Source: Phoronis australis (taxonomy: Eukaryota; Animalia; Phoronida). From it: DNA of 64,000 nucleotides. The stretch spans positions 111,758 through 175,757 of the forward strand of contig NMRA01000090.1 in NCBI GenBank assembly GCA_002633005.1, given 5' to 3'. Shown here piece by piece: positions 2,174 to 58,567 of this stretch (its first letter is position 1; each line of letters begins with the position of its first letter). The notes below the pieces were generated by a model. That model searched no databases, was not told the DNA's origin, and saw only the letters and a program-made list of their open reading frames with translations. Position numbers and translations under genes: made by a program.

Positions 2174-5100
2174 GTATGTGACTCTTAAATATGTTATGAA
2201 TCGGGCGCCCATTGTGTAACTGGGTTGCATTCTGTAGACATCAGAAACTTGTGAAAATTCAAGATCATGCAACTCTTCGGGAGATACAAAAATGCATTAG
2301 AAGTGATGCACTTGAAAACACTTATCTCATAAGTGCCTTACATCTACAAAATGTAGCCCTGTGCCCAGGGATTAACTTTGTCACTGTTACACATTGCTTT
2401 TTGCGAGTTGCCTGGTCAGTCATTGCCATACTTGCCCTTTGGCGAGTTGGGTACTTTTGCGTTCTTGACCCAATTAATCCTCAATCGTATTGGAGATATT
2501 ATCTACAGGTTAATGACATCAACAAATGACAGGAAGTCAGTTTTACAAACAACAGGAAGTCGTTTTTACCAAACCTTGAACAAAAGTCAAATACTTCTAT
2601 TTTTTCATAGTAAATAATGTATAGACGCTGAGATTGGCCAGTAGTGAAATTTTTTGCATTTTTAAAGATTTTGGTGTATCGCTTACATGTGGACTTGTGA
2701 TTGATGCAATGGTCTCCAAACTGCCCATTGTTGGCATTTAATTGACTTAAATTCAAAACAATTCTGATTCAGGAACATAGTATGTATTGGGACAAGTGGA
2801 CTATGAGTTTCAGGCAAAAACTTTTGTTGACTATTAATAAAGTATTTTTTTCATCTTCAATACTCTACCTGGTGAGTACCTGCCTCAACGTAATTTTGAA
2901 ATTTTATAAAACGTTGTGAGTGCAAATACAAAAAACAGTTATGGAGCATTGCACCATTTATTTGAAATTGGGAAATGCAGTTCTAAAAAAATTCAGCAGT
3001 GAAAGAGCTAATGTACGAACTCAACTCAAGACTCGACTCAATCAAAACATTGCTAATCATGTTGCATTATTTGAGTACAAAATTTGTAAACTATTGGAAG
3101 CGTAACATGCAATTCGTCAATTTTCAAGTCGAGTTTCAAGAACAGAGTTTAGACGCTGTGTGGTCTCATCTCAGTTGTTGAGACCAGCTGTGTTATGTAG
3201 TCTACTATGTGTTATGCCTCAATTCAGCTAATTTTGTTATGTTATCAAACATCTAATGGTCTCGAGACTAACTGCAAGTGAATTGAGTCACACTGTTGTG
3301 TGTGAAGTTCATTCTTTGCCCATGAAAATTCTGCAAAAATACAGATAAAGTTTCATCATGTCACATTGTGTCTGGTGTGCAGATGGCTTTAGTTAGGCTG
3401 CATTCTGTAGATACATGAAGCATGTCCAGCAAGAAGTTTTCACTGATGGAACTATTCTACAATTATTCTAATCCCACCTACCAATCATTTCTGCAATGGC
3501 CACCATTTTACTTACTACGTTGTCTTAAGCATTCTTGCAAAACACTTGCCTTTAACAGAACAGGTGATTTTGCGTGGACTTGTGGATCTTGTGTTTTTGC
3601 TTGTTTGTTTGGAGTACACCCCTGCATCCCTGCACCCCTGGTTGCGTCTTACCCGTAAAGTTACCAGGAACGTCTTTTTTAAATGTGAATCTGTGTTGGA
3701 AGCCACTTGACTCTGTTGACATGTACACTTTTGGAAGTCAGTGTAAAACAGATGAAAACTAGGAAGATACACTGACAGTGCATCTTAGTGTCCATCTTGT
3801 CTGATAAGTGAGCTAAATAGCACACAGATCACGGTTTATTCAACTTTTTCAGGAGTAATTTTTGCGAGCTTACGAAGATTACAGCATCCCATTCGTTCAT
3901 TGTCCCCTACCACGTGTTGGCGTGACGCAAGGGACATAGTACTCACAACGTACATCCTTGCATCCTATCTCAAGAACAAAGCTTTAGATTTTGTTCATAT
4001 TTTGTCTCGGGGTCTAGGTGGAGCAACTCCAGGTGCTGGTCAATATTGGTCACCTTGACATTATTTTCAAGGGCACAGCCAGAAAATGAAGTTGGACTTC
4101 AAAAAATGCTATGGGGGTGATGTCTCAAGAAGGAAACTTTGATGGCATATCACATGAACGTAGCTTTAGATTTTGGTGATTTCACATTTTTAACATGTGT
4201 GTATCCCAAGGCGGCTTGGGACAGTTGTCATCCTATATTACAAAATGCTTGTTGTATCCTGGTACTCATTGTCACCTGAGTTAACTGGATGCCAAAATTC
4301 ATATTCTGATCTTGTATTTAAGTGCTCAATCACTCTGCAAAATCAACAAGTGTGGTTCATTTTGTTATTCATTAGTAACAACTGTATTCATGACTACTCG
4401 TCTGTTTTATACATTTCAGTCCAGAAGAGCCTATCTCAAGCAGAAGAATGCAGCCATTTGTATAGCAGCCTTTGCCCGAGGATGGCTGGTATGTTATGAG
4501 CTTGAACATCTTTTGACAGTTGTATATTGAAGTAACATTACAAACGTGTTACAGTTGCAATCAGTATCTACACCAAAATTAATAAAAACAAATTGTTGTT
4601 GATAAATTTATAAATATTCACACTCGTCACAATTTTTAATCTAGTGACACCAGTATTTAATTGAAAATTTATTTGTAATGTTTGGATGATGTCTGTTTGA
4701 CCAAAACATGCTTTTAGTAAATTTGTACTTTGGTAAAAAAGTGCCGAACTCAGGTATTCAGGAATGAAATGAAATGAAATTAGTAAATAGGACAAGGCAT
4801 CAAGGTAATGACAGTGGCGGGTTGGGCTTGACACCTCCGGTAATTGCTGTATTGCAGGGCAACACACATCTGTGCACGTCTGCTCAATTTGGGCTGGTAT
4901 TGATAAACTAGTAGGAATGCTGTCGTGAAGGTGATGATGTATAATGATGATTATTTTTCCTAAAACTTCTGTACCTCCGAGTGACAAACATTTGTGTCAC
5001 TGCCTCAGTCGGGGAACTTCATAAAATGTGGCAGTATGTTTCTATTAAGGAGAGGGATGACTCTTATCCATTTTTGGATGGTTCTGATACGTGCTATGCC

Positions 5101-8100
5101 ACCTAGCGACAGTTTTAGAAATATGGTTCTGTTTTGGCATCTGTCTCTGTGTCTGCCAAACTGCTTGAAGGACAGTCATGAAATTTTGCCCGATGTGTAC
5201 TTATTAATCTGAGTAATTCTTATTCTGGAACTCATATGACTTTTGCTGTGCCTCTGGCACCAGTTCGCAATTTGCTTGTCAAAAGACATGTTCCGTCAAT
5301 GCTTCCCTGTGCCCAGTCACCACAAGCAACACCACTGTGTTAGCTTGCATTATTGTTCACAAAACTGTGCTACAAAGAGTGCTTGTCACCTTTCTTGTTA
5401 ACGATAATCCTCCGTGAATGCACTGACAGCCTATGCTGCTCATTTTGGGGGAAATTTTAATTATATGAATGTGATTTCAAGCAATTTGAAATAATTATCA
5501 CCCATTTTGTGAGACCATTGACCTCCAAACATCATTGTTAGTTTTTATGGCTGAACACCTGCAGAAACTCTAGAAATGACTACCTATGCCACTGAAAATA
5601 GGCTAGAGATTGGTGTAAATAGTTATTATAAAAATGATGACACGATCTTGTTATAATTGTATGGTTGCTATCCACAGGCCAGAAAGCTTGCTGCCCAGCT
5701 CCGTCATGAAAAGCGCTGCCTGTGGGCTGTAGGAGTGATTAAAGCTTATTTCATTGGTTGGCAGACGAGAAAAGAGTACCGGAAGTTACTGCCTTCCATA
5801 GCGAGTACCAAACTCGTTGGATTTGTACGCAATGGACTGGTGCGTGACGTAGATATCGCAGGTTGATGTATCTGACTGTGCAAATTCTGATAGATTCTTC
5901 GGATTTTAATTACTCTTTCATAACCACATTTAAAAATATTCATATATTTGAGACAAAACTGGCATCAAAACATAGACTGTTGAATTAGGCCACCTGCCAT
6001 TAAAAAATTGGTCTAAACTTGGTTTTTTATGCGCCCACTTATTTATATGTGGTCGCATATTGCCGTCATCTCTGTCTGTCCGGGCGGCCGCAGCTGTATC
6101 TCCTAAACCCCTCACAAGATCTTGATGAGATTTGGCAGTTGTCTTCCTATGAAGCTGACGACAGACGATGACGAATTTCAGACCTCTCCGACTACCGTTG
6201 TGCCCCCCTGGTGGCAATTTTAGTTTTTTACGCTTACCTCTGTATCTTCGGAAGTCCTCAACGTAGGTTCATAAAATTTGGAATATAGACATCTATTTGT
6301 GAGATGAAAGTATCCTCTCGTTTTCGGATGGATGCGACGTAGTTTGCGCCACCTAGTTGCCATTTTTACTGTTTTCGAGTCTGTTTTTTGGGGTCCACCC
6401 CTCTATCAACCAAAGCGCTCTAAGGATGATTGTAAAAATTGGCATGTATGTTCTTATCGTGAAGAGGATGGCTGATGACGATTTTCCAATGACTTCTAGT
6501 ACTATGGCGCCTCCTAGTGGCAGTTTTGTGTTTTTTTCGCCCATGGCTGTATCTCCTAAGTCCTCTGCAGAATGTTTATTAAATTTAGCAAGTGTATGTA
6601 ATGGTATATGACATTGACAACAAAAGACGACAACTTTCAGACGGATCCGATTAAGCTTTGTTTCCTAGTGGCAATTTTATTTTTTCCCTTTTGTTAAAGT
6701 TTCTTGATGGATTTTCATGAAATGTGGTAAATAGCCTTCTGTTAAAAAGCGGTGACATTTTCCAGTTTTTTGATGGATTCGAAATATTTTGCACTATGTA
6801 GTGGCCATTTTTATGATACAAATAATCACCCTAGAAGCACACTGTTTGTAGTGCATTCGTGGGCGCATTTCAACGCTTCGTGTTGCTCTTGTACATGGAT
6901 TAGAAGTGATGTTTGGACTTTGGAAGACCTGACAATTTGATTTAGTTGGCTTATCCCTGCAGTTATTAGGTTCATTGTGGATTTAGTTGGCTTATCCCTA
7001 CAGTTATTGGTGTTTGTTGATTTAGTAGGGTTATCCCTATAGTTCTTTGTTTATTGTTGGATGGGGTAGACTTCTCAGAATTATTAGCTTTCGCCAGAGC
7101 CAACTAAATCCGTTGTTTTTTGTGATTTTATTTTTGTACTTCAATCGCCAATTCTCGTTGTCTCCAGATTTTCACTGTAATCAAGGCTGGTGTCTTTACC
7201 TGTTAAAAAGTCTTAAAAATATTCTGCCATTTGTCAAGTGGAGTTTAGTAGGAGTTTGATTTCACAATGAAGCTGGCCTCGTAAAATCAATGTTTTCGAG
7301 GAAAATGTCCCTAATTTAGAGCGCAATATAGCTGACAAGTGAAATTATATTTTCAATAAAATGCTTTCCTTATTCAAGTTTTGTGTCACAGTTACCATCT
7401 AGCAAAGTTTTGAAGCCCTTGAAAAATGAAAAGGGCATTTTAGGCCATTATTTGTGTCTGAAATTTGTTAGATTTTATTGTTAAGTGGATGACTGGTTAC
7501 TGTTTTGCAGGAAAATCAAGTTGTCGAAATTCATGGATTTCCAACACCAGAACTGGTAGTCATATTAATTTATGGTACATCTTTACTTTCACTGCCTGGT
7601 GTGAAATCTTTTTGTCACCTGCTGAACTATTTGTTTGCTGGTTTTTGTGCTAATCCTGGAGACCCTAGAATTGCTTCTTCGTTTTTATGTTTGGAATCCA
7701 GTTGTAAATTGCTTCAATAGCTGATTTATGAAATAGCTGTCGCATGTTGAAATTCACAATCCTGCCAGACAGAGATTAGGTGTTTGGTGGACAGGGGTTT
7801 AGCGCCACCTACAGATCCCATGTAATAGGACAGGAGTTTCAATCTACTGGTATAAACAGTGTTTTAATACCTTTTCTATGGTCATACCACTCAAAATATC
7901 CATGGATGAAGGACATCATGTGCCATACACTTCACATTGCAAAAAGAATCCATGCCCTGTGAAGTCAGTGGCTGCAGCTGATGAAGGGATATCAAAAAGC
8001 TATAAATTAGTGAACTTTAGTAGCCCAATTAAACAATAGGAGGGGATGACACTGGGGTTTATTACTCTGTTTTTGGAATAATGAACCAATGTGTACAAAG

Positions 8101-11100
8101 TGAGTTTCTGTCCAGATCAAGGGAAAATCTATTTTGCGCTCTCATTACTCTACAGAGCGCCTATATGAAAAGTCCGCTATTGGTGTGCCAGAGTTTTGAC
8201 TCATTTTGCCTGAATATTGGGTTTACCCTAAGCCCTTAAAAATTATTCACTTTTCTACAGAAATGAACCAACAGTCTGTCATGATAGGCAGACACTGTAG
8301 TGAGTAGCCATGAGTTATTGTGACGTCAACTACAGGTTTTGGGAGTGTTTGATATTCGGCTTACAGGTTTTTTACCAAAATGGTATCTTGTCATCCAAAG
8401 TAATTTTAGGTTCTAACATGTGGATAGAGGCTAAAAAATTGTAGAAATTCCTCCTTTTAATGATTTATGATTTGAGAGAACATATCAGAATACAGAATTT
8501 ATCTAGACAGTCAAGTATGTTACTGTGACAATTGCAGTGTAATTCTGAAGTATGTTTAAAAGGCAACAACAATTTCAAAACTGCCAATATGCCTCTTTAA
8601 AATAGTTTTTTGAACTTTAAAGAAATTTGAAATTTAACAATTATGCTCTTTCATTTTTGTGAAAAAAATTATTTTGGTGAAACCTAATTGTTCAACAAAT
8701 TGGGCGTACATTTTTTGTTCATGCTAAATGAGGGTAACCTCGGCACTGTGTCATAGATTTTTGTATCCATAAACTGCCAGCGTTTATGCTAATGATGCAG
8801 TGTGTCAAATGTATTCTAACGAAATTTCAAAGTCTATATGTCCGGTATTAAACTAATTGATCCTGCTCTTTAATTAAGAAATTCATGTACACCAAGTTAA
8901 ATCTCACAACATACTTTCAGAAACGCCGTTACTTAATCAACCTATCCAAGACACTGCCTAGCACCTCACCTGTGGACAAAACCTGGCCGAACCCTCCTGC
9001 TAGGCTGATGGAGACGAGCGATGTCTTGAGAACACTTCACCACAAGTGGAGGGTATTATTTAAAGGCTAAAACAACCTTTTTTCATGTCATTTTTTGCAA
9101 AAATAAGGTTTGTTGATTATCCTAGACATATTTTTCACTTGATCACAGCTTTTCGTAATTTAATTATTCATTTTCTGCTCCAGAAGTGACGTTTTGGGAA
9201 GCAAAAATTTTACGCTAATTTCTTTTCATATAGTGTGACTGTGAGAGCAGTCGAGTCAGTCATTGTTCTATCTCGGTTGTGAAAAGTTCGGTCGTTGTTT
9301 GCTTTTGTTTACGAGTCATTCAACATGCCACACTGTTGCTGCATACCGGGATGTACTCATTATAGCCTAGAGCCTGTAAGCAGCCCTGCTGCAATGTTGA
9401 GTAGTGGGAGTTAATACAGGCCCAGTTCGACACCCAGTGAAGAGGATAGTTTGTCGTTCAATGAACAGATTGGTGAGCCGAGCTTTGATAAGTTTATTGT
9501 GGACTTGTCTAAAGTATTGGAGCTATTTAGAAGGTGCCAGGTGTGTGGCGTGGGAATCACATGGCGGGATGTAAGCAGTTTGTGTGCTCAGGTCAATATC
9601 CAGTGGGAGTGTGTTGCGGGACACTCGGGCAAGTTGTTCCTCTGTGCGTGAGACGATAATGAGAACATGGCGGTACGCAGCAGCAAAAGTGTGGCATGTT
9701 GACTAACTCATATTCAAACGCAAACGACGACCGAACTTGTCAAAATTGAGATAGAACAATAATTGACTCAGCAGCTCTCACAGTCAGGCTATAAGAAAAT
9801 ATATTGGTGTGAAATTCTGGCCTCCCAAAACATCACTTCCGGAGTAGAGGACGAGTAATTGTTTAAATTACTAAAAAGCTGTAATATGTCTGGGATAATC
9901 AACGAACTTTATTTTTGCTAAAAGTGACATGAGAAAGGGTTGCCTTCACCTTTAACCTGGGCACAGCAAGGCTTGCAGTTGAGACTGTTGCGAAAATGTT
10001 CTTTTTGTAACACTTGGCCTAATATGCATAATTAGTGTCTAGCATTTGATACGCTATTGTTGACATTTGTGAACCTATCCCTGGGGAAAAAACACTGGCC
10101 TGACACATATCCCATGTCAGCAAATTTTTACTACAGTTATCAAGGTTTTGTATACGTTCACCATTTGTTCTTTTTGAACATTGCTGTTGTCCTTTGGTTA
10201 TGTTGATCTAATTAGTACTTGTTACTGTGGCTTGTAAATGGAGAATTAACATCCACTATTTTTGTTAATGGCAGTGTGACAGACACCGGCAGAAGTTCAA
10301 CACACTTCAAAGGCAAGTGATGAGGGAAAAAGTAATGGCCAGTGAACTGTTCAAAGATAAAAAGTCAAGTTATCCACAGAGGTTTGTTAGATAACATTTA
10401 AAAGACATGTCTTTATGATCACCACCTCCCAAGTCTTCTTAATCACACTCTCATATTTATTTCATACCACAATAAATCCTTTTAGCAATGAAAACGTAAA
10501 TATAGTGGATCCTATTTTTGTCATGTTATACAAAGTCAGGTAGAATATCCTGGTTATTGTCATGAATTATCAAAAAAATGATCATTTCCCATTAAACCCA
10601 ATGTAAAATAACACGCAATGTCATGATTTCATGGTCATATTCCTAGATAGTAACGAAACTAAACTCGCTGTTTATTATCATGTGCAGTGATATAGGATAT
10701 CACAAGGGGGGCAACATTTTGTCTGTAAACATTTGCGCAAAGCACGAAGTAGATGTGCACAGAACCGAATGGGGGGAGGTGAGGAGGGGTGTTTGCCCCC
10801 CTCCCGCCAGGAAAATTTTTCTGTTTTTTCCTCTAAATATCAAGCATTTTCCTTGATTCCTGAAGTATTATCTAAGAAAAAAGGCAAAGAAAGAAACAAA
10901 AAACACTGAAAACGTATCAAACTTGAAAAACTGCAATTGTTACAGATTCCATTTTCTTTAAAAAATGCAGTAATTTTCTAAATTGCACAGTGAAGCAGAT
11001 GACGTAAACGGTGTCGTAGTGTCGCCACAGCCGGTCGTCTGGGATATCGCGGGAAAGCCTATACTTTGCCATAGTTCTGTTTCGATTGTGCCATGTTCCA

Positions 11101-14100
11101 AATTTGACACTTGAAATTGGATCTGAGCCCCCCAAACACACTAAAACTGCACACCATTTAAATCTTGTGCATGTGTATCATCGCTTCTCTTTCTAAAAAT
11201 CAACAATACAATTCATCTTCATTTCAAAACTCAGCTCTTGGAGTAAAAATCTGTTGTTTCCTGTTTAGTTGTTTGACTCGTGAAAAAATGGGATTTTGAA
11301 GTGCAGAGAACTGGGACAAGTGTGGGTTGGTCAAATAGCATGTTGTTGAAATTATGTTTGAACACGATAAAACATTCAAGTTCAATTATATATAGAACAT
11401 GAAGCAGTATACGACATTCAAGTGACTAAACACATGTCGAGAGAAAACTAAGGTATTTTAATACTGGAAGGTTGAAGTTAAACTAGTACCAGCTGACTAA
11501 TTTAAGGATTTGGGGAGTACCTTCGACTGTCATCATTTAAATAAAAAATTATTGCATTTAGTCTGGTAAACGTTGTATAAGTATCTTGTATTCTTAGTTC
11601 TTGTTCCAGAACTTTCTGAGTAGTGATTAACAATTTTGAAAATAGGGCGTTCCCTGAAGAAAAATTCAACCATTTCTTGTTTGGACCACTGTTGCAAGCA
11701 AAAGGCATGAAGCAGCATTCAGAGTTATGTTACTATTATTAATTTCATTTATCTTTCAGTGTCAGCCAACCATTCAAAGGTACCTATGTGGCCTTGGGTC
11801 AAAACCCCAAGTGGACGAAAATTGCATCAAGTACTGCAGAGAGCCATCTGCTCTTCTCTGACCATGTGAACAAAGTGAACCGCTCAGATGGAAAGGTATG
11901 ATCCAAAACAGACTCTTGTACCTGAAGAAATGAATACCAGTGATGGGCTGGTGATCAATAAAAAAATTGATTATGTTCAAGTACTCCTGCTTGATTCTCA
12001 CAATTGATTAATCAGGTGCATAATTTTACGGAAATAATGGACATTTTCTGTGTAAACAAAATCAATAAATCAGTAGAATTATCACTTTGAAGTGGAACTT
12101 GCAGGCTAATTCTTTATCTCCATGACTACTTGGCCAAATTAGTTTGAAACACAATACAAGGTAACAACATGAATATTGAAGTAGGTTGAAAATTGACAAA
12201 TGTTTTTAAGAACGAGTTTTGTGATGAAAATGATCCGCTGCAAATCACTGAACTGGGTCCAGGAAATATCGTGACATGGTGCTGGGGACGAACCCTGCAT
12301 GATGTGGGCCTATGTGAGGCCGTGAAATATGTCATTCATGGAAAGGTCATCTATTTGCAGATTGTTTTGGTTTTCACATTAAAATTTACAGTTGCCATTG
12401 AATACAACTGAACTTTGTTTAGCATAGATTATGTTGAAATAGCACTGTCGTTTGGTTTTTGTTATACATTAGCATAGTTAGGGGCATGCCTTTGTTATTG
12501 TCATAGCAAAGTAACCCCTAGCCGATTTTACGAAAACTTTATGAAAACTATGTTATGTCTCAAAAACGCTGTTAGGATTTTGCTTTAAAATGCCTAGTGT
12601 TCATGTACCGAGCAATATACGAATTAGGCCGCTGTTTTTTTTTTTTTGTACAAAAATGCCTTGTATTTTGCAACTAACTATTAGTAAGTGAATAATCAAA
12701 AATTTACAAACAGTGTTTTTGAGAAATAACGTAGTTATCCTTTTTGAAAAGGTAATACCAAAATCGGATGTGGTGGTTATTTTGCTGTGAATGTACCTTT
12801 TTGCTCATGAAAATTTGACTGAAAAACTTGGTCTCATGCCAATAGACACAGTAGTAAGAAGCATATTGTTAGAATCCCCAATCTTTCTCCTTTCAGAATA
12901 TACTTCTAATGGTTGACAAAGCATAGTTTTTCAATATTTGAGTTGAGGTCAATTATTATGGTCCTAGATAACCTTAAGACAGGATTTGATGATTGAGTGT
13001 TATGTTGATACCAACTGGAATTATTACTGAGTGATATTTCCTTTTTATGCGCCTACATATTTATGTGTGGACGCATTATGCCATGATCTCCGTCCGTCCG
13101 GGCAGCGTCTGTCCGGCGTCCATCCGTCCGACGTCCGCTGCTCTAACTTGAAAACCGTTTGACGTATGTTCTTAAGATTTTGCAGATGTGTTCCTTTCAT
13201 GGATGTTACAGCAGGAGCGAACTTTCAAACAGATTTGACTACCGGTCTGCCCCCTACTGGCAATTTTAGTGTTTTATGCTTACCTCTACATCTTCAAAGG
13301 TCTTCCGCATATTTACATAAAATTTGGATTGAGTGAGATGATGCTATCCACCCGTTTTCGGATAGATCCGACGTAATTTGCGCCACCTAGTGGCCATTTT
13401 ACTGTTTTCGAGTATGTTTTTAGTTGTCCACCCCTCTATCAACCAAACCACTCTAAGGATGATTGTGGAAATTGGCATGTATGTAGTACTACTTACTTCT
13501 TACTATGAAGAGGACGGCTGAGGATGGTTTTCCGACGATTTCAACGACTGTGGCGCCTCCTAGTGGCAGTTTTGTTTTTTGCGCCTATGGCTGTATCTCC
13601 TAAACTGTCTGCAGGATCTTTACTAAATTTAGTAAGTGCATTTATATGATGTTGACAAAGGACGACGACGACTTTCTGACAGATTTGATTACTGGTGTGC
13701 CCCCTGTGGCACTTTTATTTTTTTATGTTAACCTCTGTATTTTCAAAGGTTCTCAACGTATTTTCAAAAAATTTGGCGTACTGGCTTCTGTTAATGTGGT
13801 GACGCTATCTTTCCATTTTCAAATGGATTCGACTTAGTTTGCGCCACCTAGTGGCCATTTTTGGGTCTGTTTTTTGGCGTCCACCCCTCTATCAACCAAA
13901 TCACTTTCAGGATAATTGTGAGAATTGGCATGTACGTTTATGATATGAAGGAGACGGCTGACGATGACTTTCCGATGACTTTTGCTAATGTGGCGCCTCC
14001 TCCTAGTGGCATTTTCGGGTTTTTTTTGCGCTCATCGCTGTATCTCTTAAACCGTGTGCAGTATCTTTAGTAAATTTAATAATTGTATTTATATGATGTT

Positions 14101-17100
14101 GACAAAGAACAAAGAACGACTTTCGGACGGATCTGACTACTGGTGTGTCCCCTGGTGGCAATTTTAGATTTTACGTTTACCTCTGTATCTTCAAGGGTCC
14201 TCAACGGATTTTGATAAAATTTTGAATACAGGTATCTGTTTGTGAGATGACGCTATCCTCTTGTTTTTTGGATGAAATCAAGGTATTTTGTGTAACCTAG
14301 TGGCCATTTTTGCTGTTTTCGGGTCCACCCCACTATCAATCAAATCATTCTAAGGATGTTTTTGAAAATTGACGTTTATGTTCTCTGTGTGAAGAGGATG
14401 GTTGACAATGACAACTTTGACTACTGTGGCGCCTCCATTGGTAGTTTTGTTTTGTTTTGCGTCCATAGCTGTGTCTCCTAAACCCTCTGCTGGTTCTTTA
14501 TTAAATTTAGTTTATTTATATGAAGCTAACAACAGACAATGACAACTTTTACGCAGATCCAATGAACACTGTGCCTTCTAGTGGCAGTTTTCATTTTATT
14601 CTGTTTTCCTTCGTTTCTCTGAAGTTCCTTGACAGATTTCTATGAAATTTGGTGAATAGCTTTCTATTAAGGAAGCTATGACATTTTTCCCATTTTCGGA
14701 TGGATTGTACATTTTTATGTCCTCGAGTGGCCATTTTTATGACCAATAAGCAACCCTAAAGGCACACTGTTTGCGATGCATTCATGGGCGCATTTCAATG
14801 CTACGCGTTGCTCTTGTTTATCATTTAGAACATATAAACATTCATCAATAGAGAAAATAGGAACGTTTCTTAGGTTACAGTTTGCGGGTGTTTGCAGTTT
14901 TTACTGTCAATTCATGAAATGTGAAGTTCAATGGTGATCAGCTGTGGCTATCATTTTGTTGGTACACCACCAAAATTTCCAAAGTTATTTTGAAAATTCC
15001 ATATCAGTTATGTTTATTATGAAAAAGCATCAGTTTCAACTAGATTGGTTTGTGAGCAAATTCCTTTCTTGATATTTTAACTAAATAAGAAGTAGAAAGA
15101 GTATTTTTAATACTGGAATTGATAACTTGAGCACTATTTCAGAATGTTTGTTCCTGTCATTTGGTTTATTTTTTCTCATTGTTGCAGATGGCTCCTTGCA
15201 TTCTGGCTATGACTGACCAATCAGTGCTCATACTGGACAACAAGTCTTTATCGGTCAAGTATCGCACACCGTACAAGCAGGTTGACCATCTGTCTGTTAG
15301 TCCTTACAGTGATGGGCTACTAGTGATTCACTTAAAAAAGGTACTTTACAAAAGAAGTTCTCTGTACTCTGCTGAACAGTAGTTAAAAATTTACAAAATC
15401 CAGACAGTGAAATTATGTTTTTGTCACACCTATGGTGAAAATTTTATAGGAAATCGGAAAAATGTGTCATGGGCAAGGTCTTCACAAATTTGGGCATTGC
15501 TGGAACTTATCTTAGCTATGGAGTGGATCAGCTCAGTGAATTTTTGATGAGAAGAGATCTCAATATTTTGTTAAATATTTAAAAGACTGCAGACAAAATC
15601 AATTGCAGATATCTAAGGTACCTTGTAACAATGCTTACAATTTCTTTGGATGTGATTTCAGTCCCCTATTGATTGAAGATAACAACCGTCTCCCTAAACT
15701 TCAATCACCCCCACCAGCTTTTTCGGCAAACAGTCATTTTTGCACAGGTGTTAAACAAGCTCAAACATGTAAAATATCGCACCCTTCTCAGTTGTGGTGA
15801 CAGAAACCAATTTGACTTATGGTGATTGCAGCATTAGTTGACTGAATTAGAGGCCTTTGTAATAGAAAGCCAAATCACTTAATTTCAAAGTGTTCAAGTA
15901 AGAAGTCACTAGTGAATTTAACAAGAAAGTGTTAGTCAGATGTCATTTCATTTATTGACCTGTGGGTTGTCTTTAAAGCTTAGTTACAGTTAGGTATAGA
16001 TCAGTACATGCTTTAAGAGAAGATTTGTTTGAGGAATAGAAAATTTTGGGTAACCTTTGATACGTATGATTATCCAAAATGTTCTATTCTTAATAGCATT
16101 TGATTCAAAATTGGTACAGCTAAAACACAAAATCCCAACAGACATGCTTTTGTTGATTGAAAGGACTTTCATGCTTTCTTAAGTGCAAGCTTTGACAAGC
16201 ATATTGAATACTATGTCTAAGACATTGTTTCCCTGATGGTAACAGTGATCCTATGGGTTTTTTATGAATAGTCAGACAGTCTTCTTGTTCGGTTGAAGAT
16301 GCATTCGATGTACCAGCCTCACTTATCACACCCTATTAGAAACACAACCCCGGTACCTTGTACTTTGTCAGTAGATATGTACAAGAATCACCCGTTTTAC
16401 CTTGTCCATTATCAGGAACACTGATCTAAGATCCTTTGAAGTAGATCATCATGATTTCAGTTGAATTGTAAAATTTCACCTAAGGGCACAATATGGCAGA
16501 CAAGTGAAAATTTTATTTCTTATTTGTTCTTAAGTGATGAATAAGTAGCACCAAAGTACTTCTTTGTCATTTTCAAGTTCTACATAATAACTACAACCGT
16601 GCAACATTTTGATAATTTGGGGGTATTCACAAGAAGGTTAGAAGCCCTTGAAAAATGACAATTTGGGCAATTAATGTTGTCCGTAATTGGTAAGACTTTA
16701 TTGTATTTTTAAGCATCATATGTAATTGGCTTGTGTATCAATGTGTGTGTGTGTGCGTGTGCGTGTGCGTGTGTGCGTGATACTGGACAAAGGACTGTTG
16801 GGAATGCTTAACTATATATAGTATTGATCTGTCTTTAGAAACAGAAGTCTTCCCTCAATGGAAGATGTTTATAATATGTTTTTTAGTGCTATGCATGACA
16901 TCAAACCTGGTTTTTAACATTCACTAGCTTATAACATTCCATTCCACAACGTCTGAGCAATTGCATAGTGTTTGCAAGTTGGTTGTAGTTACAGCGAATT
17001 TTGATTACAACTAATGGAGTACCTGGAAAGTTTACTGTGAGGCAGTTGTACTAGCATAATTTGCCTTCCAGTATTATTACACACCCGTGCATCATTTGAA

Positions 17101-20100: not shown

Positions 20101-22167
20101 TGTGAAGTGTTTTCAGCAGACTGCTCTGAGCCATCTAAAGAATGTTGGTCATAATTGGACTATTTTCTTTCGATATGCAATTTTCAAGTCAGCAATAAAT
20201 GGCATTTTAAAAACTTTGACAAGAAACTATCAGAAAGTTTTTTAAAATCAAAGTAAAAGAAAATATTATTATCAAGTGGTCACTATTTTGGAGTTGGATT
20301 GCAAAACAATTACCAATGACAGAAGAATCCCTGAAAACTGAAATGTTGCTGGGTCACTTGTGTAAATATCAGTAACTTGTTGTTTAATTGGTGAATTTTT
20401 TTTACCATATGATTCCAGTATTTTATAAAACCCTAGCTAGTTTGCTATTCATTTTAACATCCAGTTTCTCTCGCAATGGCCTCAGAACATTCTACCTTTC
20501 AATCATTGCCTTGGTATTCTCTTTTCTCTGTACATTCACCTTAATGTCGACTCACTCGGTCAGTGCAGGTCTCCCTCCCTTTCACGATGACACAAATTGT
20601 CCAAAATCACTTTTTAGGTCATGAGCAGTGGTCTTGTTGAAAGGCCATGAATGAACGAACATACGCACATGCTCAGCAGAGTTCAAGTTGAGGTCATTAA
20701 CATTTGAGTGACAATTGTTTTAAATTTTTTCGAAGACTTCAAAAAAATTCTGTTTAATTTGAAGTTAAATGTCTTATTCATCAAATTCAGGTCCAGCAAC
20801 TTTGAGCATTATAATTAGGTTTTTCATTCACTCCCTTGCATCTATCCACGACAAACTGAGCTCATAGGGTTAAGAGGCATATTTGTGCAATGCTCAGTTT
20901 GCTTCCAGTTAGGCTAGGATATGAGCCTGGGTTTCTAAATTAAAAGTCTGAAACGCAAACCACTGACCTACAGTCTACCCAACCTAGGACCCCATAAACA
21001 CATTGGATCCAAGACCCAAGAAAGTAATAATAAGCACACACCAACTCCACAGTGGTTTATTTTATGCCATGCAGCGATTACACATCATCTTCAAAGGCTA
21101 GAATGGTCGAGTGAAATGGATAGGTGAAAAGGACACAACAGAATAGTAACTGTGACATGAATATTCATTTTCTGTCCCTGTTGTAATGATGTTGCATCTT
21201 ACAGTACTTAGTTGCCTTTACCTATCACCTGACTTAGCTTTGTTGAACAGCCACTGAGAGTAAACTCAAAGATTGGCTGCTCATTGAAACTAAGGCTGTT
21301 GCTACTGTAGGTAACAGCAATACAGGGTGTCTCAAAACTATGATGCTATTTTGATTAAGAATAACTCAAAGAGAGATCATGTTTAAAATGCCTCACTGAC
21401 AGCAGCATAGCCAAGGTGGGGGCGTTTTCGCTTATATGGCATTTGAAGTGTACATCCTATAACTTTCTTGATCTTGATGCCTGTGGCGCGTGAACATTCA
21501 TTTGCATTTATTAGCAAAATGAAACCATAATGTTTCGACATGTTGACATTCTTGTTAGTTATCGCAGCTTGATCTCAGACATATGAGGGTGTAGCAAGAT
21601 GATGCACCAAATAGAAAGTGTTAAACACTCCTTGCACGTTTTAGATAGGTCTGTTTCATGGCCCCCTCGCTCACCTGACCGGATTCCACTTGTTTACTTT
21701 CTCTTGGTGTATTTAATTGAATGTCTGTGGAAAACCTCCAAACAACATCAACTTGAAAAGGATAACATTCATAGAGAATGGCTAGCATACCAGTTAACGT
21801 GTTAAGTAATTAAAATGGCTACCATGGCAAATAGAGAAAAACAATTTTCATATGCTGGAGACATCCATTTTCAAACATGAAGTCAAAAAAATCGCATCTT
21901 GTCTGTGCTGCCAGTGAGAAGTATAATATATCTTCTCTTTTTTGAGGTACTCTTTTTTAAATGTGTACTATATGTTGAGACACCAAGATGTAACTTTTTC
22001 TCTTTTTCATCAAAAGTTTTGATTTATGATTGTTTGATTGTAGTTTTCCTGCAGAGTTCAGGGGGAAATGTGTCGACTTGTCATTCAAGACAGCAACAGC
22101 TGAAGCAAGCAGTGGAAATGTCCAAATTCTAAAACGAGGTCAATCGTTTGAAGTCATTGAAACATAA
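2024..22167 (+). CDS. MYO1B: Unconventional myosin-I (MYO1A/MYO1B-type), 3' part: end of motor, IQ neck, TH1 tail. join(2024..2173,4420..4488,5678..5839,8921..9052,10275..10381,11760..11895,15188..15340,17306..17442,22044..22167); 5' exons lie upstream of the window
   Basis: Nine GT-AG exons with matching phases (0,0,0,0,2,0,0,2) total 1170 nt = 389 aa + TAA. The translation is colinear with vertebrate MYO1B as recalled: LFDLEE..LIQKVYKGW, SPVDKTWP, EKVMASELFKDKK..YP, VNKVNRSDGK, KGDIVI. Confidence 0.93.
2223..2358. mobile_element. Small Harbinger-type MITE with CTG TSD
   Basis: TIRs GGTTGCATTCTGTAGA (2223-2238) / TCTACAAAATGTAGCC (2343-2358), 13/16 match; CTG at 2220-2222 and 2359-2361; a related left end GGCTGCATTCTGTAGA occurs near 3396. 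Confidence 0.65.
3897..4253 (+). mobile_element. Short HINE/DINE-1-like element (separate family)
   Basis: 5' TGTCCC (3901-3906) with nearby inverted GGGACA (3931-3936), two internal units (TCTCAAGAA..GCTTTAGATTTTG), 3' GGGACA (4218-4223), ending GCTTGTT. Confidence 0.45.
4420..4488 (+). CDS. MYO1B: Myosin-I exon: IQ3 (69 nt)
   Basis: tttcag|TCC...CTG|gtatgt; SRRAYLKQKNAAICIAAFARGWL. Confidence 0.92.
5678..5839 (+). CDS. MYO1B: Myosin-I exon: IQ4 and post-IQ helix
   Basis: ccacag|GCC...CTG|gtgcgt; ARKLAAQLRHEKRCLWAVGVIKAYFIGWQTRKEYRKLLPSIASTKLVGFVRNGL. Confidence 0.92.
6023..6892 (+). mobile_element. HINE family A, complete copy with 5 internal ~150-bp monomers
   Basis: T-run, subTIR ATGCGCCCAC (6029-6038), adjacent inverted copy GTGGTCGCAT (6049-6058), degenerate GTCC/GTCT microsatellite, tandem monomers, 3' subTIR GTGGGCGCAT (6859-6868), stem-loop CAACGC-TTC-GTGTTG (6871-6885), CTCTTGT end. 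Confidence 0.82.
6939..7060. repeat. Minisatellite, ~40-bp unit x3
   Basis: GATTTAGTTGGCTTATCCCT.CAGTT-like unit at 6939, 6980, 7019. Confidence 0.85.
7743..7870 (+). repeat. Dispersed repeat fragment homologous to ~53715-53836 (inverted)
   Basis: CATGTTGAAATTCAC (7743-7757) and CCACCTACAGATCCCA (7805-7820) occur as reverse complements at 53822-53836 and 53759-53774 with nearly the same spacing. Confidence 0.7.
8921..9052 (+). CDS. MYO1B: Myosin-I exon: post-IQ region
   Basis: tttcag|AAA...AGG|gtatta; KRRYLINLSKTLPSTSPVDKTWPNPPARLMETSDVLRTLHHKWR. Confidence 0.93.
9064..9951 (+). mobile_element. Kolobok-like non-autonomous DNA transposon with ~300-bp TIRs and transposase remnants
   Basis: TTAA|AGG...CCT|TTAA (TSD 9060-9063, 9952-9955); long imperfect TIRs; THAP-like start MPHCCCIPGC at 9325; internal KFIVDLSKVLELFRRCQVCG...WECVAGH Cys/His remnant (9451-9651). 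Confidence 0.75.
10275..10381 (+). CDS. MYO1B: Myosin-I exon: start of TH1
   Basis: tggcag|TGT...CAG AG|gtttgt; CDRHRQKFNTLQRQVMREKVMASELFKDKKSSYPQ(S). Confidence 0.94.
11760..11895 (+). CDS. MYO1B: Myosin-I exon: TH1/PH beta-1
   Basis: tttcag|T GTC...AAG|gtatga; VSQPFKGTYVALGQNPKWTKIASSTAESHLLFSDHVNKVNRSDGK. Confidence 0.94.
12495..12800. mobile_element. Palindromic MITE (possibly Kolobok-type)
   Basis: TCATAGCAAAGTAACC..CCGATTTT / AAAATCGG..GGTTATTTTGCTGTGA and inner TCTCAAAAACGCTGTT / AACAGTGTTTTTGAGA inverted arms; ends degenerate. Confidence 0.55.
13042..14818 (+). mobile_element. HINE family A, complete copy with 11 internal monomers
   Basis: subTIR ATGCGCCTAC (13047-13056), inverted GTGGACGCAT (13067-13076), (CCGT)n tract ~13090-13137, ~450-bp trimeric repeat, 3' ATGGGCGCAT (14784-14793), hairpin 14796-14810, CTCTTGTT end. 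Confidence 0.85.
15188..15340 (+). CDS. MYO1B: Myosin-I exon: TH1/PH
   Basis: ttgcag|ATG...AAG|gtactt; MAPCILAMTDQSVLILDNKSLSVKYRTPYKQVDHLSVSPYSDGLLVIHLKK. Confidence 0.94.
16742..16779. repeat. (TG)n/(TGCGTG)n microsatellite
   Basis: tgtgtgtgtgtgtgcgtgtgcgtgtgcgtgtgtgcgtg. Confidence 0.95.
17306..17442 (+). CDS. MYO1B: Myosin-I exon: TH1
   Basis: tgtcag|ATT...AAC AA|gtaagt; IDNGVKGASTKGDIVIMSQRIIEVVTRMHMATTTSEKSLNVQVSN. Confidence 0.93.
19171..19300. mobile_element. Possible ~130-bp piggyBac-type MITE
   Basis: Right end TTGAGGGG|TTAA (19293-19304); left end TTGA|CACCTC is a degenerate match. Confidence 0.35.
21323..21987 (+). mobile_element. Decayed, internally deleted Tc1/mariner-superfamily element
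   Basis: TA|CAGGGTGTCTCAAAA left TIR; TGTTGAGACACC right TIR; internal SWPPRSPDRIPLVYFLLVYL resembles the WPPRSPDLTPLDFFLWGYLK catalytic motif. Confidence 0.8.
22044..22167 (+). CDS. MYO1B: Myosin-I last coding exon with stop
   Basis: ttgtag|T TTT CCT...ACA TAA; (N)FPAEFRGKCVDLSFKTATAEASSGNVQILKRGQSFEVIET*; phase 2 matches the previous exon. Confidence 0.9.
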
Positions 22168-30124: not shown

Positions 30125-33100
30125 CTGAAGCAAGAAGACAATACATTATCACAATACATTATCACAATACATTGAGTTTATTACATTGCAATTTGATAAG
30201 CAAGCAAGTCCTAACCACACCCACTCCTATATCACTTAGGTTATCACTCAAAATCTTTGAAATAACTTGTCAGTCCTAGTTTTATCAGTATTTACCACAA
30301 GTAAAAACCAATATTAGTCATATTTAGCTGAATCACATCAATCCTTTCTCATGAAACTACATATGTTTTACTAATGTATTGTAATTTGCCATTTCATTAT
30401 TTTAGTAACAACGCTTACACACAGCATGTGGAATAAGCATATGCCTATCAGAGTGCGCATGCTATTTAAAGTGTCACTTAAGTGAAGACATATACAAAAG
30501 GAGAGCAAATAAATATTCCTAAATAAAAATATGACTGACCACTCATTTTCAATGTAAAAATGCCGGTGAAATAAAGAACAAAAATAATAATCAGGAATTA
30601 CCAATGCAGTAGGAAAATGGTCCGAGCCGATAAAGGGCTTAATTATTGACATTAAATAGTGAACTTCTATAGTTATGTACATAGTTGGCTACAAACACGG
30701 ACTTATCGATAAGGCCACACACAACTTTCGCAAATAAACATTGGCCAACACATATATCAACCTCATTTGTATTTTCAGGGGGAGGGTTGTGAAAAGTGTA
30801 TGTTTTGTACACTCGTATAAATGGTAATAGTGAATCTTTGTGGACTTTGTCCGTTTTGACCAAGCTCTAATATAGCTGTTGGCAAGTAACCTCGCTAACA
30901 TCTAATTCCAAGCTTGAATTACCAAGCATGTTTAACGATTGCTTAAAAAGATTGAATAATACTGGTCGAACTTGATAAGTATACTCAATTTTTTAACATA
31001 GTTGCCAGCAACCTTTAGTCACTCCAGTACAAAGCCAAAACAGAAAGAAAAATTTACCGTTGTTCCTGTAAAGTGGTGTTGATTTCACCTGCTCTGACCT
31101 CTGATCTTGCCCTCTTTAGGTCCACTGACAGCTGTGTACTCAAGCGACTTCCTACTGAATGTGCATCTACCCGATATCGATTGGCCTTGTACAAAGATCA
31201 GAATAACATTCTTTTATGCAACAACCAAAAACGATTCCTCTTAACTACTGAAGTAACACAGACTAAAACTTATGAATGTCCAAATATGAGTTCAAGGTTT
31301 ATGATGAGGAGTACACAAATCAACCTAACTTAAATCAAACACTTTTCAACATAGAGAATTCCTAAGTGTATCAAAAACAGCAATGATATATTAAAGGGTG
31401 TCCATTTTTCCAAATATTTCCACTACAGTGAGCAACACTAGATTTAGGCCCATCCACCAAACAATTAAGCTACGCCTATATTCAGAATAAGGGGCATGTG
31501 CCTACATGTGAAACACTTAAAGATATCTCAAACCTTATTCCCAAAAATTAGCTGTTTTTTACAGTATTTCACAGATTTGTAGCAAATACCTTATTTTCAT
31601 TCTCGAGACTTCAACTACGACACATATACCATGTAGTGAGAAAAAAAAGAGTGGGCAGAATCATCTTCAACCACGTGGAAATTTATTTACTACTTATTCG
31701 GGGTTAAAGGTTACAGGGCTGTCATTAGAACCGAATCTCCTGCCAGGTATGAAGCAGTTCCGTATGTACCCTAAGTCCTTTCATAACAATGAATCGCCAT
31801 AATAGTGCGTCAACAATTTGTACGTAGAATAGAAAGATGCTGCAAAAAGGAAGATTTTGAGGTAAATTGTGAAGTTTTCACTCAAATAAGGTTTTATCAA
31901 TACTAAAGTCATAGAAACTCATCATTGCTAAGAACTTCTAATGAGGAAACAATGAGATTTTAATAAAAAAATACCAGTTTAGTCACCAACCTGTTTCTCA
32001 GCATGATTCATCTGCCAACCCATCACGTGACTAGTTAGCTCCTCTCGGTAATAGTTAGCCAATGAGGGTGGTAGTTGTATGCAGGGTTGCTTTTGAGAGA
32101 CAGCTCCCAGGCTGGTGGAGACCACACCCTGTGAGCTATTTTGGCTTGGTGTTGGACTACTTCTATCGGGCCTAAGTCCAGAGAAGTGAAACTTAAAAGT
32201 GACCAAAGCACACACCATAAAGATGTCACAACAATATGTAATCAATAATAGTGTAGTAGCTTGACTAGTTGGAGTAAGAAGTAATTAATTGTGCTCTTAA
32301 GGTTTTTAACAAAAGAATGTTGGTGGAAATTACATGTTGGTAGAGGAAGGCTACTGAACTGCAAATCAAGGAGTTCGCAAGCATCTTCAATGGACAAGAC
32401 AGATACCTTGGTGTCCTTAACAATTTTCTTCCAACTTTCAGCAAGTGCCTTCACCCATGAACAGTCAAAAATTTCCTTTTAAAGCCATGCAGTCACAATT
32501 GTTACAAACATTGTCCAACCAATGCCAAAGTTCTATCCAAAATTTCAAGTATCTCTCCACTACCACAGGCAGACAACAGAAAGTCAAGGTGCATGTATTT
32601 CGTTGGTCACGGTACTACCTCACACGGGACAGCCAATAACAAGCCAGCTGCTAATTAGTATTCTATGTGTGGTGTTATCATTCACCAGTCTTATTTCAGT
32701 CTTCAAAATAGTGTTTTTTTTAACACTAAAGTTTCCAATATCTTAGACAGTACTCTTCATAAAAAGCACTCCCGACAGAACTACACTGCCAAAAGCATTA
32801 CGCCAATAACAAGCCGGGCGCTATTTATTATTCTATGTGTGGTGTCATCATTCACCAGTCTTATTTTAGTCTTCAAAACAGTGGTTTCTAACACTTAAGT
32901 ATCCAATATCTTAGGCAGTACTCTTCATAAAAAGTATTTCCGACAGAAGAACTACACTGCCAAAAGCACTACGCTTTGAATATGTTTGAAATTGTGGTCT
33001 ATCCTGAACTCAAAACAGTTACGAAGGATGACATACCTTGAAGACCTAGCACTGTGCTCAGAGGCTGGGCTACTGTGTCCAGGTGGTTCATCATCTACAG

Positions 33101-36100
33101 ACTGTTGTGACCTGTAGGTGTGCCCTGCACTGGTCGGCGTTGATACTGCCCGTTGGGGTGTGGTCTGACCCTGGGCTGGAGCTACGTATGGTCTCTCTGA
33201 CGTCAAAGGTGTAGTGTTGCCTTTCTGACTGCCACTGTCATGTTGAGGTGACGACTGGCTGTAAGGTGACTGTTGATGGGTGAGAGGCGTGGCACTCTGG
33301 CTTTGATTCGCACAGGATACTCTCGGCGACTGGGCGGAACCAGCTAGATGGAGTGAGCAACAGAGGCTAGGCAATTACCAACACACATTTGCAGGAAAAT
33401 TTTAAGTGAAGCGTAAACATTTCCATGCTGTATGAACAGTCAAATTCAGTGTCACTGCGATTATTGGCAGGTGTCACCATCAATGTCATGTGTTGTGGTT
33501 TTATTTGACATTTTTTAAACCTTCACCACCAAAATATATTGGCACTTTATGTTATTAGTTATCCAACCACAAATATGATACATCAAAATTCAAAAAATAC
33601 ATCCACACAAGGCTTTTAGATTGCCATCCTCTGAAATCTTCAATGAGTTGCATGTCAAACTGCGATAACTTCAGTGTCCACTAACCACATAAGCCAGTCT
33701 GAATTGTTTAACTTTGCAGTTAATACTGACACTCCTTGAGTAATGAATTTGGTACGAAAGCCCCAATGTCACCCTTAATCACTGGCAAATGGTTATACTA
33801 GAAGCATCCAGAAATGTACTCACCATTTTGTATAGACACCTTTCTACTGCTAATAGCCTGCTGAAGTTGCTGGAGAGTTTGTAATGCTGCAAACAACAAA
33901 AATGTATGAACAAATCAAAAACAACGTTGGAGTGCAACTAAATAATATATAGCATTGCATACAGTGCCCACCTCTAATGAAGATATAGTTGAGACTCCCA
34001 ATTGAATGAAACCAGCATAAAATTGTAGAAATTTTCTGAAGGATACCTCAAACCTTATTCATAAAAATTGGTCATTTTTACAATATTCACATGTCTAGCA
34101 AAATACCTTATCTTCTTTATTCTTGGGAACTTCACATACAAAATATACACCGCATAGCATGAGAAAAATAAGCAGAATCACTTTGGAAAACACAACCACA
34201 TAAAAATTTGTTGTCAAATGTTACAGGGCTGTCAATAAAATCGAATCTCCCAGCAGTTTCGTATGTACTCTCAGTCTGACCCAGGTAACACAAGGCTCAG
34301 GAAACCCCACGACCGTCTTCAAGGATAGCAGAAGGTATTGGGTCCAAGTTCCCGTCGGGGGCAGAAATGTTTGTTGACTTATGTTCAATAGGTCACATAA
34401 TACGTGATGTGGCTAATAAGTGGTGTGCAGAGCAGACTTAAAATGTTTGTGATCTACATTTCCAAACTGGCTTAAGATTTACATAGATATTGCGAGTGAA
34501 TGCTAAATTAGCGAATATGGTGTGGTAAAGGATTATTCGCACTGTCCACAGTAACTATTCTCTCTTCTTTAAAAGCATGGCACATACATGTAATTAGATG
34601 ACGATAGTCTTCGAACCTTTAAGCACGAGACCGTCAAGACGGTAGTTGTGATCAACAGCAAACCACCCACTGTTGAAAATGTGTCTGATGTAACAGTTCC
34701 TCTACCGATTACCCCCNCCCCCCCCCCCCCGCCATCATCTGCTAACAGGTAAGACTTCAGTCATAGTCTCTCCTCCAGGACTATTTCAGAAAGAGGATGT
34801 TTACACGCTACCAGTTCATCTCAAAATCGAAACATTGTTTCATAAACAATGTATTTCTGTTAAAGCTAGAAAATAATACAAATTGCTTACCTTGCTCCTG
34901 GAGTTTTTTACTATCAATGTTTTGCAAGAGCGACTGGTCTCCTAGTCTGGTCAGTACTGACGATAAGTTGCCGAGGGTGACGCCCGCACTGTTGCCCGGG
35001 AGACTGGCTAGACTTGTTGCTGTGGACACCGCTACGTGCGATGGATAATTAGTTACACTAGAGGATACAGTATTGGACAACTGCACACTGGTGGGAGGTG
35101 CAGTGTCCTGTAGAGGAGGGGTGCTGTCTGGCGAAATGTCCATGTCCACACTTCCACGAATATCTGCATCAGAATACAGAAATTGTGAACTAAAGTGAAC
35201 AGAATTAATAATACCCCCTTTACTTTTCTGAGTGATATATACAGGCACATTAATGACCACTGGTCCAACGGGATAGACCCATGTGGCCATGTGGATACAA
35301 ATGAATAAACTTCACCTTTGATGTTGGTGGAATAAGCACCCAGTTTTATAAATGAAATAACCTTTTGTAGACTGTGCAATACTTACATATAAATCTTTCT
35401 TAAAACTTTTGTCTGTCAAAGTATAATGGTAAAACAAATGCATTTGCCAATCATTTTTCTTCACAATAAAGCCAGATATCTGGCAAAGATATAAACTTGG
35501 CCTTATTATAAGTGTCTGACGGTAACTGCAAGGTCAATAAAAACAAGGAAAAACATGACGTACATCCACAGTAGTATTATTTGGGCATTTCCGTGAAAAG
35601 GTCAACCTCGACACAAAAAATTAAAATTGTGGCTACACTAACATTTCTGGTCCCATCTGAAAGCCAATTCTTTCTAGTTTCAAGACCCATATTTGATTGT
35701 CCTATAACTTTCAATTTTTTGCTTAAATGGACCCCTTTTTGGGGGTCGCTTGACCCTAAAAAATTAACTCGATTTTAATGGGTGTTGCTAATTATTGTCA
35801 TAAAAAAGCTAATTATGCGGTTTTCACTATACTTATTACTATCAATTTTGTGCAATCACATGAACCCCAAACTTTATAAAAATAACATTTCATCTTTGGC
35901 ACATTATTGACCTCTTGGGGTCAAAGGTCAACTCCTGGATATCATGGTGCCGTATGTCCATCACAATAAAGTGTTAAAAAGTTTAGTTGTGTTAAAAGTT
36001 TTTAATCAAAATTAAAATAATTTCAGATCCTCTTTTAACTTGTCACTCAACTCTATTGACCACAATTTTGGATCCCAGGGATTATTCGTTTAGTCAGAAA

Positions 36101-57606: not shown

Positions 57607-58567
57607 TGCGCCTGTTTTCAAAGAATGACAGACAGATATACACATTTATGCTGTACTTTTTATTTTTTTCTTTGATTTAGTGAATCATCTACTGTAACTC
57701 TCAGTAGATTCTAAGTAATTTTTATAACCCAGCTTTCACACTTATATGACAACCTTCATTTTTCACCTACGAATATGGACCTTGATTGTGATTTGCCCAA
57801 GTATTAGTTTGTCATTTAACAAATGTACTTTTCATCGATCAGGTGAGTCAAAAGGCGTTGATTTGCTCTTTATCTGAGCACTGGGCACTTAATGCAAAAT
57901 CTTTAAATTTAGTCTGGGATAGGCACTTATCCGTGAAGTGGCCACTTACTCGTAAGCCTTCAAAAGTTGTGAATGGCTGCTTAGCTGAGCTATGACCGCT
58001 TGTATCGAAAATTCACCCAAAGTGGTAGATTGGCATTTATTTGAGCTTGGGCATTAACCCAATTGTTTATGGTATATGCACAATCTTCATTCATAAAAGT
58101 AATTGTGAATCATTGTTATCTTGCTAGTGTTATCTCAAATGCATTTAACTAGAGCATTGAGCATTTCAGCAAAACTCCTTTTAAGCACCTAATAACCTTG
58201 ACTTTTCAAACCTACTTGAGGTTATGTAGGACCCTATTAACTTGGGAAAAGGATATGTTTTATGAAAGCAGAAAGCCTGTAGAATTTATTTTTTGACTTC
58301 AAAACCAATATGTCATTGGTGGAGTCTTTTAGTAAAATTAGCAAAAAAGGCACAATCATAGTAAGACAATTGTATCAATAGCATGATTAAATTTTGTGTA
58401 TTTCACACAGTGTTGCTTACTCACACCTGTTTTATAGTTGAGTTGTTCAAACCGAGCCACTTTTCTTTGATTTTCTTCTCATGTCAAAGTGACACCTTTG
58501 ATGGATTTTCATCTGATGTACACACTGTAAATTTGACTCAATATCTCTCCATTGATGGGTAGTCTAA

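Follow-up and report, generated by a model that had tools for sequence, protein, structure and literature searches.

Non-autonomous rolling-circle transposons of the HINE/DINE-1 type share a layout in which subterminal inverted repeats (subTIRs), a further inverted repeat, a microsatellite and a block of central tandem repeats are followed by a 3′ hairpin (PMC4067079; PMC7492417), and in the oyster Cg_HINE elements the central monomers are mostly 140–180 bp long, with one family of 147 bp (PMC7492417). Transposons that spread sites for CTCF are known from mammals, where the SINE B2, MER20 and HERV families do so with binding shown by chromatin immunoprecipitation (PMC7786948), and the variable-number tandem repeat of SVA is bound by BORIS/CTCFL, which represses SVA (PMC5007689). 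Rolling-circle elements have also been found to distribute the motifs of host factors, namely HSF-1 sites carried by Helitrons in Caenorhabditis elegans (PMC8896005) and dosage-compensation sites carried by ISX Helitrons in Drosophila miranda (PMC6598467), and Helitron-derived periodic An/Tn clusters (PATCs) in C. elegans introns have been proposed as chromatin barriers (bioRxiv 10.64898/2026.08.08.743475). Here, a transposon family designated family A is described from a stretch of 64,000 nucleotides of the phoronid Phoronis australis (contig NMRA01000090.1, positions 111,758–175,757, forward strand; hereafter the window, to which all coordinates refer), mainly on the basis of its copy C2 (13042–14817, + strand), the central array of which is made of three monomer types (a, b and c), each with a candidate CTCF site.

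Family A resembles the HINE/DINE-1 and oyster Cg_HINE elements in its subTIRs, its 5′ inverted repeat, its GTCC-type microsatellite and its array of 140–180 bp monomers, as well as in its non-coding character and, less clearly, in the 3′ stem-loop and the T-rich flanks (PMC4067079; PMC7492417), the subTIR of 10 bp being slightly under the 11–15 bp reported for HINE elements. It differs from these elements in its array, in which three diverged monomer types, all bearing a near-optimal CTCF match, form a trimer. Like SINE B2, MER20 and HERV, it is a mobile family distributing ready-made CTCF motifs genome-wide (PMC7786948), but it is rolling-circle-type, belongs to an invertebrate and bears 5–11 candidate sites per copy. 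With SVA it has in common an internal tandem repeat with clustered CTCF-family sites, probably relevant in the germ line, whereas SVA is a retrotransposon bound by the paralogue BORIS, with binding demonstrated (PMC5007689). The HSF-1 and ISX Helitrons are likewise rolling-circle elements distributing many copies of the motif of a host factor, although other factors and host co-option are concerned there, and in family A the constraint seems to be on the element lineage. The PATC Helitrons also offer intronic tandem repeats possibly retained for element persistence, but these barriers rely on a 10-bp periodicity of a mechanical nature, in a worm that lacks CTCF, as opposed to a candidate protein-binding motif. 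Transposons carrying CTCF sites and Helitrons carrying motif arrays are both on record, and their combination is apparently undescribed within the literature searched, in which no report of CTCF motifs in HINE or Helentron central repeats was found, most subscription journals and the Repbase/Dfam entries being outside the scope of the search. Six CTCF-core strings compared with the oyster satellite consensus file (supplement of PMC8268682; the first 400 characters of long rows) gave a single, non-matching hit, the closest oyster look-alike seen scoring 6.7 bits, and the strings were absent from ten supplementary files of PMC4067079, in which the sequences are possibly incomplete. A CTCF motif as a general feature of HINEs was rejected on the oyster check, within the limits of the file searched.

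Scores for CTCF likeness refer to the vertebrate JASPAR matrix MA0139.1 in an approximate form. On this scale, the consensus sequences of types a, b and c reach 23.8, 25.9 and 23.7 bits, respectively, and that of the terminal b monomer 24.4 bits; every monomer type carries a near-optimal match to the matrix, and none of 5000 column-shuffled matrices attained the real three-type minimum of 23.7 bits (best, 11.6). The consensus trimer measures 452 bp, with the motifs spaced by 145, 161 and 146 bp. In C2, where all matches are on the − strand, the array opens with a type a match at 13245–13263 (22.5 bits), a type b match at 13378–13396 (25.9 bits) and a type c match at 13551–13569 (23.7 bits), which are followed by a type a motif decayed by a 1-base deletion (13695–13713, 7.6 bits), a type b match (13839–13857, 25.9 bits) and a type c motif with a 3-base insertion (13994–14012, 17.3 bits); a type a match (14143–14161, 20.5 bits), a partly decayed type b motif (14288–14306, 13.3 bits) and a lost type c motif (14427–14445, −1.5 bits) come next, and the penultimate a-type motif (14569–14587, 19.0 bits) and the terminal b-type motif (14715–14733, 10.5 bits) close the series. 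A first-pass annotation of this DNA had assigned CTCF-like motifs to eleven positions of the array. The five examples that it quoted are present where it had located them, and seven of the eleven positions score 17–26 bits, whereas three have fallen to 7.6–13.3 bits and the one at 14427 no longer matches.

The matrix scan is in agreement with that annotation, since C2 contains seven sites at p ≤ 1e-6 and eight at p ≤ 1e-5, as compared with means of 0.005 and 0.087, respectively, in 1000 shuffles. The motif consensus that it had proposed, with at most one mismatch, is matched 15 times in the window against 0.30 expected, none of 100 shuffles reaching 15, and all 15 matches are on the − strand and within family A. 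The 16 window sites at p < 1e-6 also fall, without exception, in family A, in which 16 of the 34 monomers of the window keep a score at this level. The excess over shuffles makes the evidence look stronger than it is, as a single ancestral motif gave rise to all of the sites. An upstream (U) motif of the vertebrate type was not noticed by eye beside the family-A motifs, no test aimed at it having been run. The YY1-like sequence AAAATGGCC, into which the motif of the b type had been described as running, occurs indeed in b-type monomers, but its restriction to them and its overlap with the CTCF match led to its rejection as a separate feature.

The comparison between monomer types is more informative. 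Their consensus sequences are 50–58% identical outside the motif and 74–79% inside it, and three-way identity is observed at 13 of 19 motif columns versus 49 of 129 elsewhere (Fisher p = 0.012). The adjacent T-run is likewise conserved across types, and motif and T-run together are the best-kept block, much as the first-pass annotation had judged by eye for the motif. Among the four type motifs (a, b, c and terminal b), the variable matrix columns are 1, 2, 11, 12, 16, 18 and 19, and these seven columns have a mean information of 0.48 bits, as compared with 1.11 bits in the fixed ones (permutation p = 0.006). In neutral simulations at the flank rate, all three types remained at or above 23.7 bits in 2.1e-4 of 200,000 runs when an optimal ancestor was assumed, and in at most 5e-6 when the observed types were the starting point. 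There is, in summary, good sequence evidence that the motif was constrained while the types diverged by about 45%, the changes being apparently limited to tolerant matrix positions.

This higher conservation of the motif relative to its flanks is found between the types and is slight at most in the inserted copies, where the motif is lost at rates near those of the flanks. Among 39,625 reads placed on one near-consensus b monomer (6296–6412; 40 of 48 variant rows), variants present in at least 5% of the reads affected 6 of 19 motif and 23 of 70 flank positions (p = 0.57), and those present in at least 13%, which are likely subfamily changes, affected 0 of 19 and 14 of 70, respectively (p = 0.025). 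The CpG of the motif was mutated in 21% of the reads versus 25–31% at three flank CpGs, two other flank CpGs (45% and 56%) being excluded as probable subfamily sites, and score-lowering variants at matrix columns 9, 14 and 15 were present in 7–12% of the reads. Inserted copies decay near-neutrally, and post-insertion constraint is weak at most; the constraint is therefore likely to have acted on the source lineage of the element and not on the host insertions.

On balance, it seems probable that the motif has been kept by selection on the source copies of an old, high-copy HINE and left to decay once inserted. An early monomer may have taken up or evolved a CTCF site, tandem duplication then putting one site into each monomer, and the donor copies would be bound by CTCF or by a zinc-finger protein sharing its specificity. 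In the germ line, this binding might maintain the donors in an open state or protect them against the spread of silencing. The Rep/helicase of a putative autonomous Helentron, acting in trans, would then copy donors that retain intact sites more frequently, and the by-product for the host would be many thousands of strong, slowly decaying CTCF-like sites, a few of which were perhaps co-opted. The first-pass annotation had already raised the option that the element itself profits from CTCF, and the constraint that the type consensus sequences suggest supports it. A bolder version, namely that the lineage was selected for a CTCF site in each monomer, which shields the donors, and that it seeded tens of thousands of sites and became their main genomic source, is possible but can only be advanced tentatively.

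Several points weigh against selection on the source copies. How the element would gain from the site is pure inference, and the matrix used for scoring is an approximate vertebrate one. The type consensus was built from 7 trimers of four copies, the simulation is not independent of the column test, and it was for its match that the motif had been chosen. One 19-column window outside the motif shows three-way identity at 12 of 19 columns, compared with 13 in the motif; type c has the third-ranked base at matrix position 12, and the read consensus of the penultimate a monomer has, at matrix position 11, a T that the matrix disfavours (18.0 versus 24.3 bits), a position at which its contig consensus has the favoured base. 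Moreover, the copies of the window show 0.10 substitutions per site in the motif versus 0.17 elsewhere, and their loss of score, assessed in 21 of the 34 monomers (4 perfect ones and 9 with more than five mismatches being omitted), amounts to 169 bits versus 201 or 221 bits simulated (p = 0.063 or 0.008), which is compatible with mild selection having acted on some of them after insertion.

The same data may also be viewed as the outcome of a single captured CTCF site multiplied by tandem duplication and kept intact, in the absence of selection, by gene conversion or low mutability. Co-orientation and spacing are explained in this way, the genomic copies decay nearly neutrally, as would be anticipated, and short tandem repeats with CTCF-like motifs exist in four unrelated metagenome contigs, albeit found by construction. 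Conversion would, however, erase differences, yet the types differ at 4–5 motif positions, and a random placement of 4–5 changes preserves the score in 0.1–0.9% of the trials; in addition, G/C sites outside the motif mutate faster than A/T sites in family A (0.21 versus 0.12), so a G/C-rich motif would not be expected to be kept by default, and such an unselected history appears unlikely. Slightly less likely still is that the block constitutes a signal for the machinery of the element, either a hairpin/CTAG site for the Helentron Rep/helicase or a recombination site involved in forming the repeats, and resembles a CTCF site only since the CTCF core is itself nearly palindromic. The b motif does form a small hairpin (5-bp stem, 3-base loop; −4.4 kcal/mol), the penultimate a variant of the reads is a perfect 10-base palindrome with a lower matrix score, the T-run next to the motif is conserved between types as well, and the monomers of oyster HINEs share conserved segments too (PMC7492417). 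The a and c motifs, in contrast, break the stem without compensation (−2.9 and −1.8 kcal/mol) and yet have matrix scores near 24, CTAG has become CTGG, a change tolerated by the matrix, in five monomers of the window, and the oyster consensus file does not support a block general to HINE monomers.

The first-pass annotation had also envisaged ready-made directional insulators or nucleosome-phasing arrays. Copies retained by the host as directional boundaries or phasing arrays would be consistent with the 16 of 34 window monomers at p < 1e-6, with the mild excess of conservation among the window copies, and with the enrichment of CTCF motifs at domain boundaries in amphioxus (PMC10013865) and echinoderms (PMC13317027). 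At odds with such retention are the score-lowering variants at columns 9, 14 and 15 and the density of the family, six copies per 64 kb with three in the introns of one gene being too dense for boundaries. The phased and co-oriented arrangement that had been put forward as evidence proves nothing, because phasing and shared orientation both follow from tandem duplication and any tandem repeat yields them. The orientation-dependent action of CTCF is a vertebrate finding. A nucleosome occupies 147 bp, and sites 145–161 bp apart leave no room for it between bound CTCF molecules; on geometric grounds, the phasing of nucleosomes between all of the sites is unlikely. The spacing of about 147 bp was likewise rejected as a nucleosome signal, and the monomers of oyster HINEs are mostly 140–180 bp too (PMC7492417). 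At echinoderm boundaries the enriched CTCF motif is without orientation pattern, and orientation is irrelevant in flies (PMC13317027), just over 52% of the CTCF pairs are convergent in amphioxus (PMC10013865), and the CTCF evidence in spiralians is described as fragmentary, direct evidence lacking (PMC10658181). Directional insulation finds no support in the echinoderm and fly data or in a motif lost near flank rates, and host-selected cassettes are the least probable of these explanations.

By its anatomy, C2 is an old, non-autonomous Helentron-type (HINE) element, and the subTIRs, 5′ inverted repeat, GTCC-type microsatellite and central array on which the first-pass annotation had based this class are all present. 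The element begins with a T-run (13042) and ends with CTCTTGT (14817), followed by TT; its extent is supported by read depth, and it is located in an intron of a myosin-I gene between the exons at 11758–11895 and 15188–15340. The alignment of four 5′ ends places the subTIR of 10 bp at 13047–13056, with an inverted partner at 13067–13076, as a hairpin after the T-run (z of the DNA fold, −2.2 in C2 and −3.4 in copy C1, located below), and the sequence continues with a GTCC/CCGT-type microsatellite (13090–13137), the length of which differs from copy to copy in that alignment. The central array (approximately 13138–14760), delineated by self-alignment, trimer alignment and profile hits, comprises 11 monomers of about 150 bp in the order (a-b-c)×3+a+b, the self-alignment offsets of about 450 and 900 bp indicating a higher-order unit of about 452 bp; Tandem Repeats Finder did not detect it, because the monomers are too diverged. 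The 3′ end (14784–14817, from aligned 3′ ends) contains the reverse complement of the subTIR at 14784–14793, a decayed 6-bp hairpin at 14796–14810 and the terminal CTCTTGT before TT, the subTIR being exact at both ends of C1 and at the 3′ end of copy C4. As to the 3′ hairpin that had been claimed, most of five aligned ends have a stem of 6 bp closed by a loop of 3 bases, but this structure folds no better than shuffles in the two single copies tested (z −0.38 and 0.40). The copies have T-runs at their 5′ ends, TT past their 3′ ends and no flanks in common, and 13042–14817 contains no stop-to-stop frame of at least 90 amino acids, hence no coding capacity. No empty site was found among the read joints examined across 12600–15400. 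A contig of run X1 (1,998 bases) has a listed match only from 14773 on, to 15400, with 1,370 bases unlisted; it is possibly another allele of the C2 insertion, although the alignment does not show it. A different repeat of lower copy number (12788–13040, read depth about 190–340) adjoins the 5′ end of C2.

Five further copies or remnants of family A, 66–76% identical to C2 where long alignments exist, are present in the window, of which the family covers about 6.2 of 64 kb. They are C1 (6024–6892), an a-b-c-a-b copy near the family consensus; C3 (23678–24878), older and with 8 monomers; C4 (58565–62170), divided into 58565–59660 and about 61965–62170 by an inserted repeat of another family; C0 (724–1556, start approximate), decayed and with an internal insertion at about 1026–1286; and the strongly decayed remnant C5 (5025–5390). 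All six copies (724–62170) are on the + strand, which is mostly T-rich there, and a preference for T-rich targets may align the insertions with host transcription; in a second repeat family, the strand changes to − at 37 kb, along with a reversal of the skew. Five sequencing runs were listed, one of them Hi-C and four with no library type recorded, and ChIP or ATAC labels were absent from all five. When 12.8 million Hi-C reads of the same species were mapped to 12600–15400 at a likeness of at least 80%, 223,557 were placed, nearly all within C2, with a depth of 2,000–44,000 inside the element versus about 1–6 in the unique right flank and a sharp fall after the bin with 14817. About 1,400 5′ ends, 3,200 3′ ends and 11,000 b-type monomers are estimated for the genome, figures that depend on a single-copy depth of 2.8 (five bins, range 1.2–6), are uncertain about twofold each way and are blind to older copies; Hi-C reads cover the sequence unevenly, and part of the c-type bin may be a box common to other repeats. 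The depths indicate that family A is present in thousands of genomic copies.

A search with a paired-motif pattern retrieved four metagenome loci and no viral ones. They align with family A over the motif and T-run only and, having been found by construction, were rejected as support. In L001:1-310, three 125-bp monomers otherwise unalignable with family A each show a 27–30 bit CTCF match and then a T-run, and the third, not required by the search pattern, keeps a 30.5-bit motif; L003:1195-1830 and L004:670-890 are tandem repeats of 38 and 33 bp, respectively, in which most units are CTCF-like (14 and 7 matches above 12 bits).

The second repeat family of the window (59717–61960, 51540–52550 and 37217–37650) has internal units of about 670 bp, with YY1-like AAGATGGCRG words (seven in the window) and NRF1-like GCGCATGCGC (60026 and 60700), and one of its copies appears to break the penultimate motif of C4. 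The myosin-I gene, on the + strand at 2024–22164, has IQ and TH1 regions and exons near 2024–2173, 4420–4489 (by eye), 5678–5839, 8927–9055, 10275–10376, 11758–11895, 15188–15340 and 22051–22164; its relatives in the profile library are 30–53% identical, the named ones (4 of 20 clusters) all being from bilaterian invertebrates, namely an annelid, a gastropod, a crinoid and a springtail, and a protein search with a single myosin exon gave zero scoring matches. A second gene is suggested by several serine/arginine-rich reading frames of the − strand at 32952–45277, three of which gave no match in Pfam.

The contribution of CTCF to insulation and loop anchoring in marine invertebrates is an open question (PMC10658181; PMC13317027), and the provenance of all top-scoring CTCF motifs of the window from one transposon family implies that motif-only scans in such genomes may mostly count repeats. 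If binding proves true, family A would show that transposons can have selfish grounds, distinct from host co-option, for bearing CTCF sites. It would also supply matched arrays by the thousand, some intact, some decayed and some possibly polymorphic, in which the function of CTCF could be addressed, and insertion polymorphisms of arrays of 5–11 sites would represent a natural test of CTCF insulation and orientation outside vertebrates.

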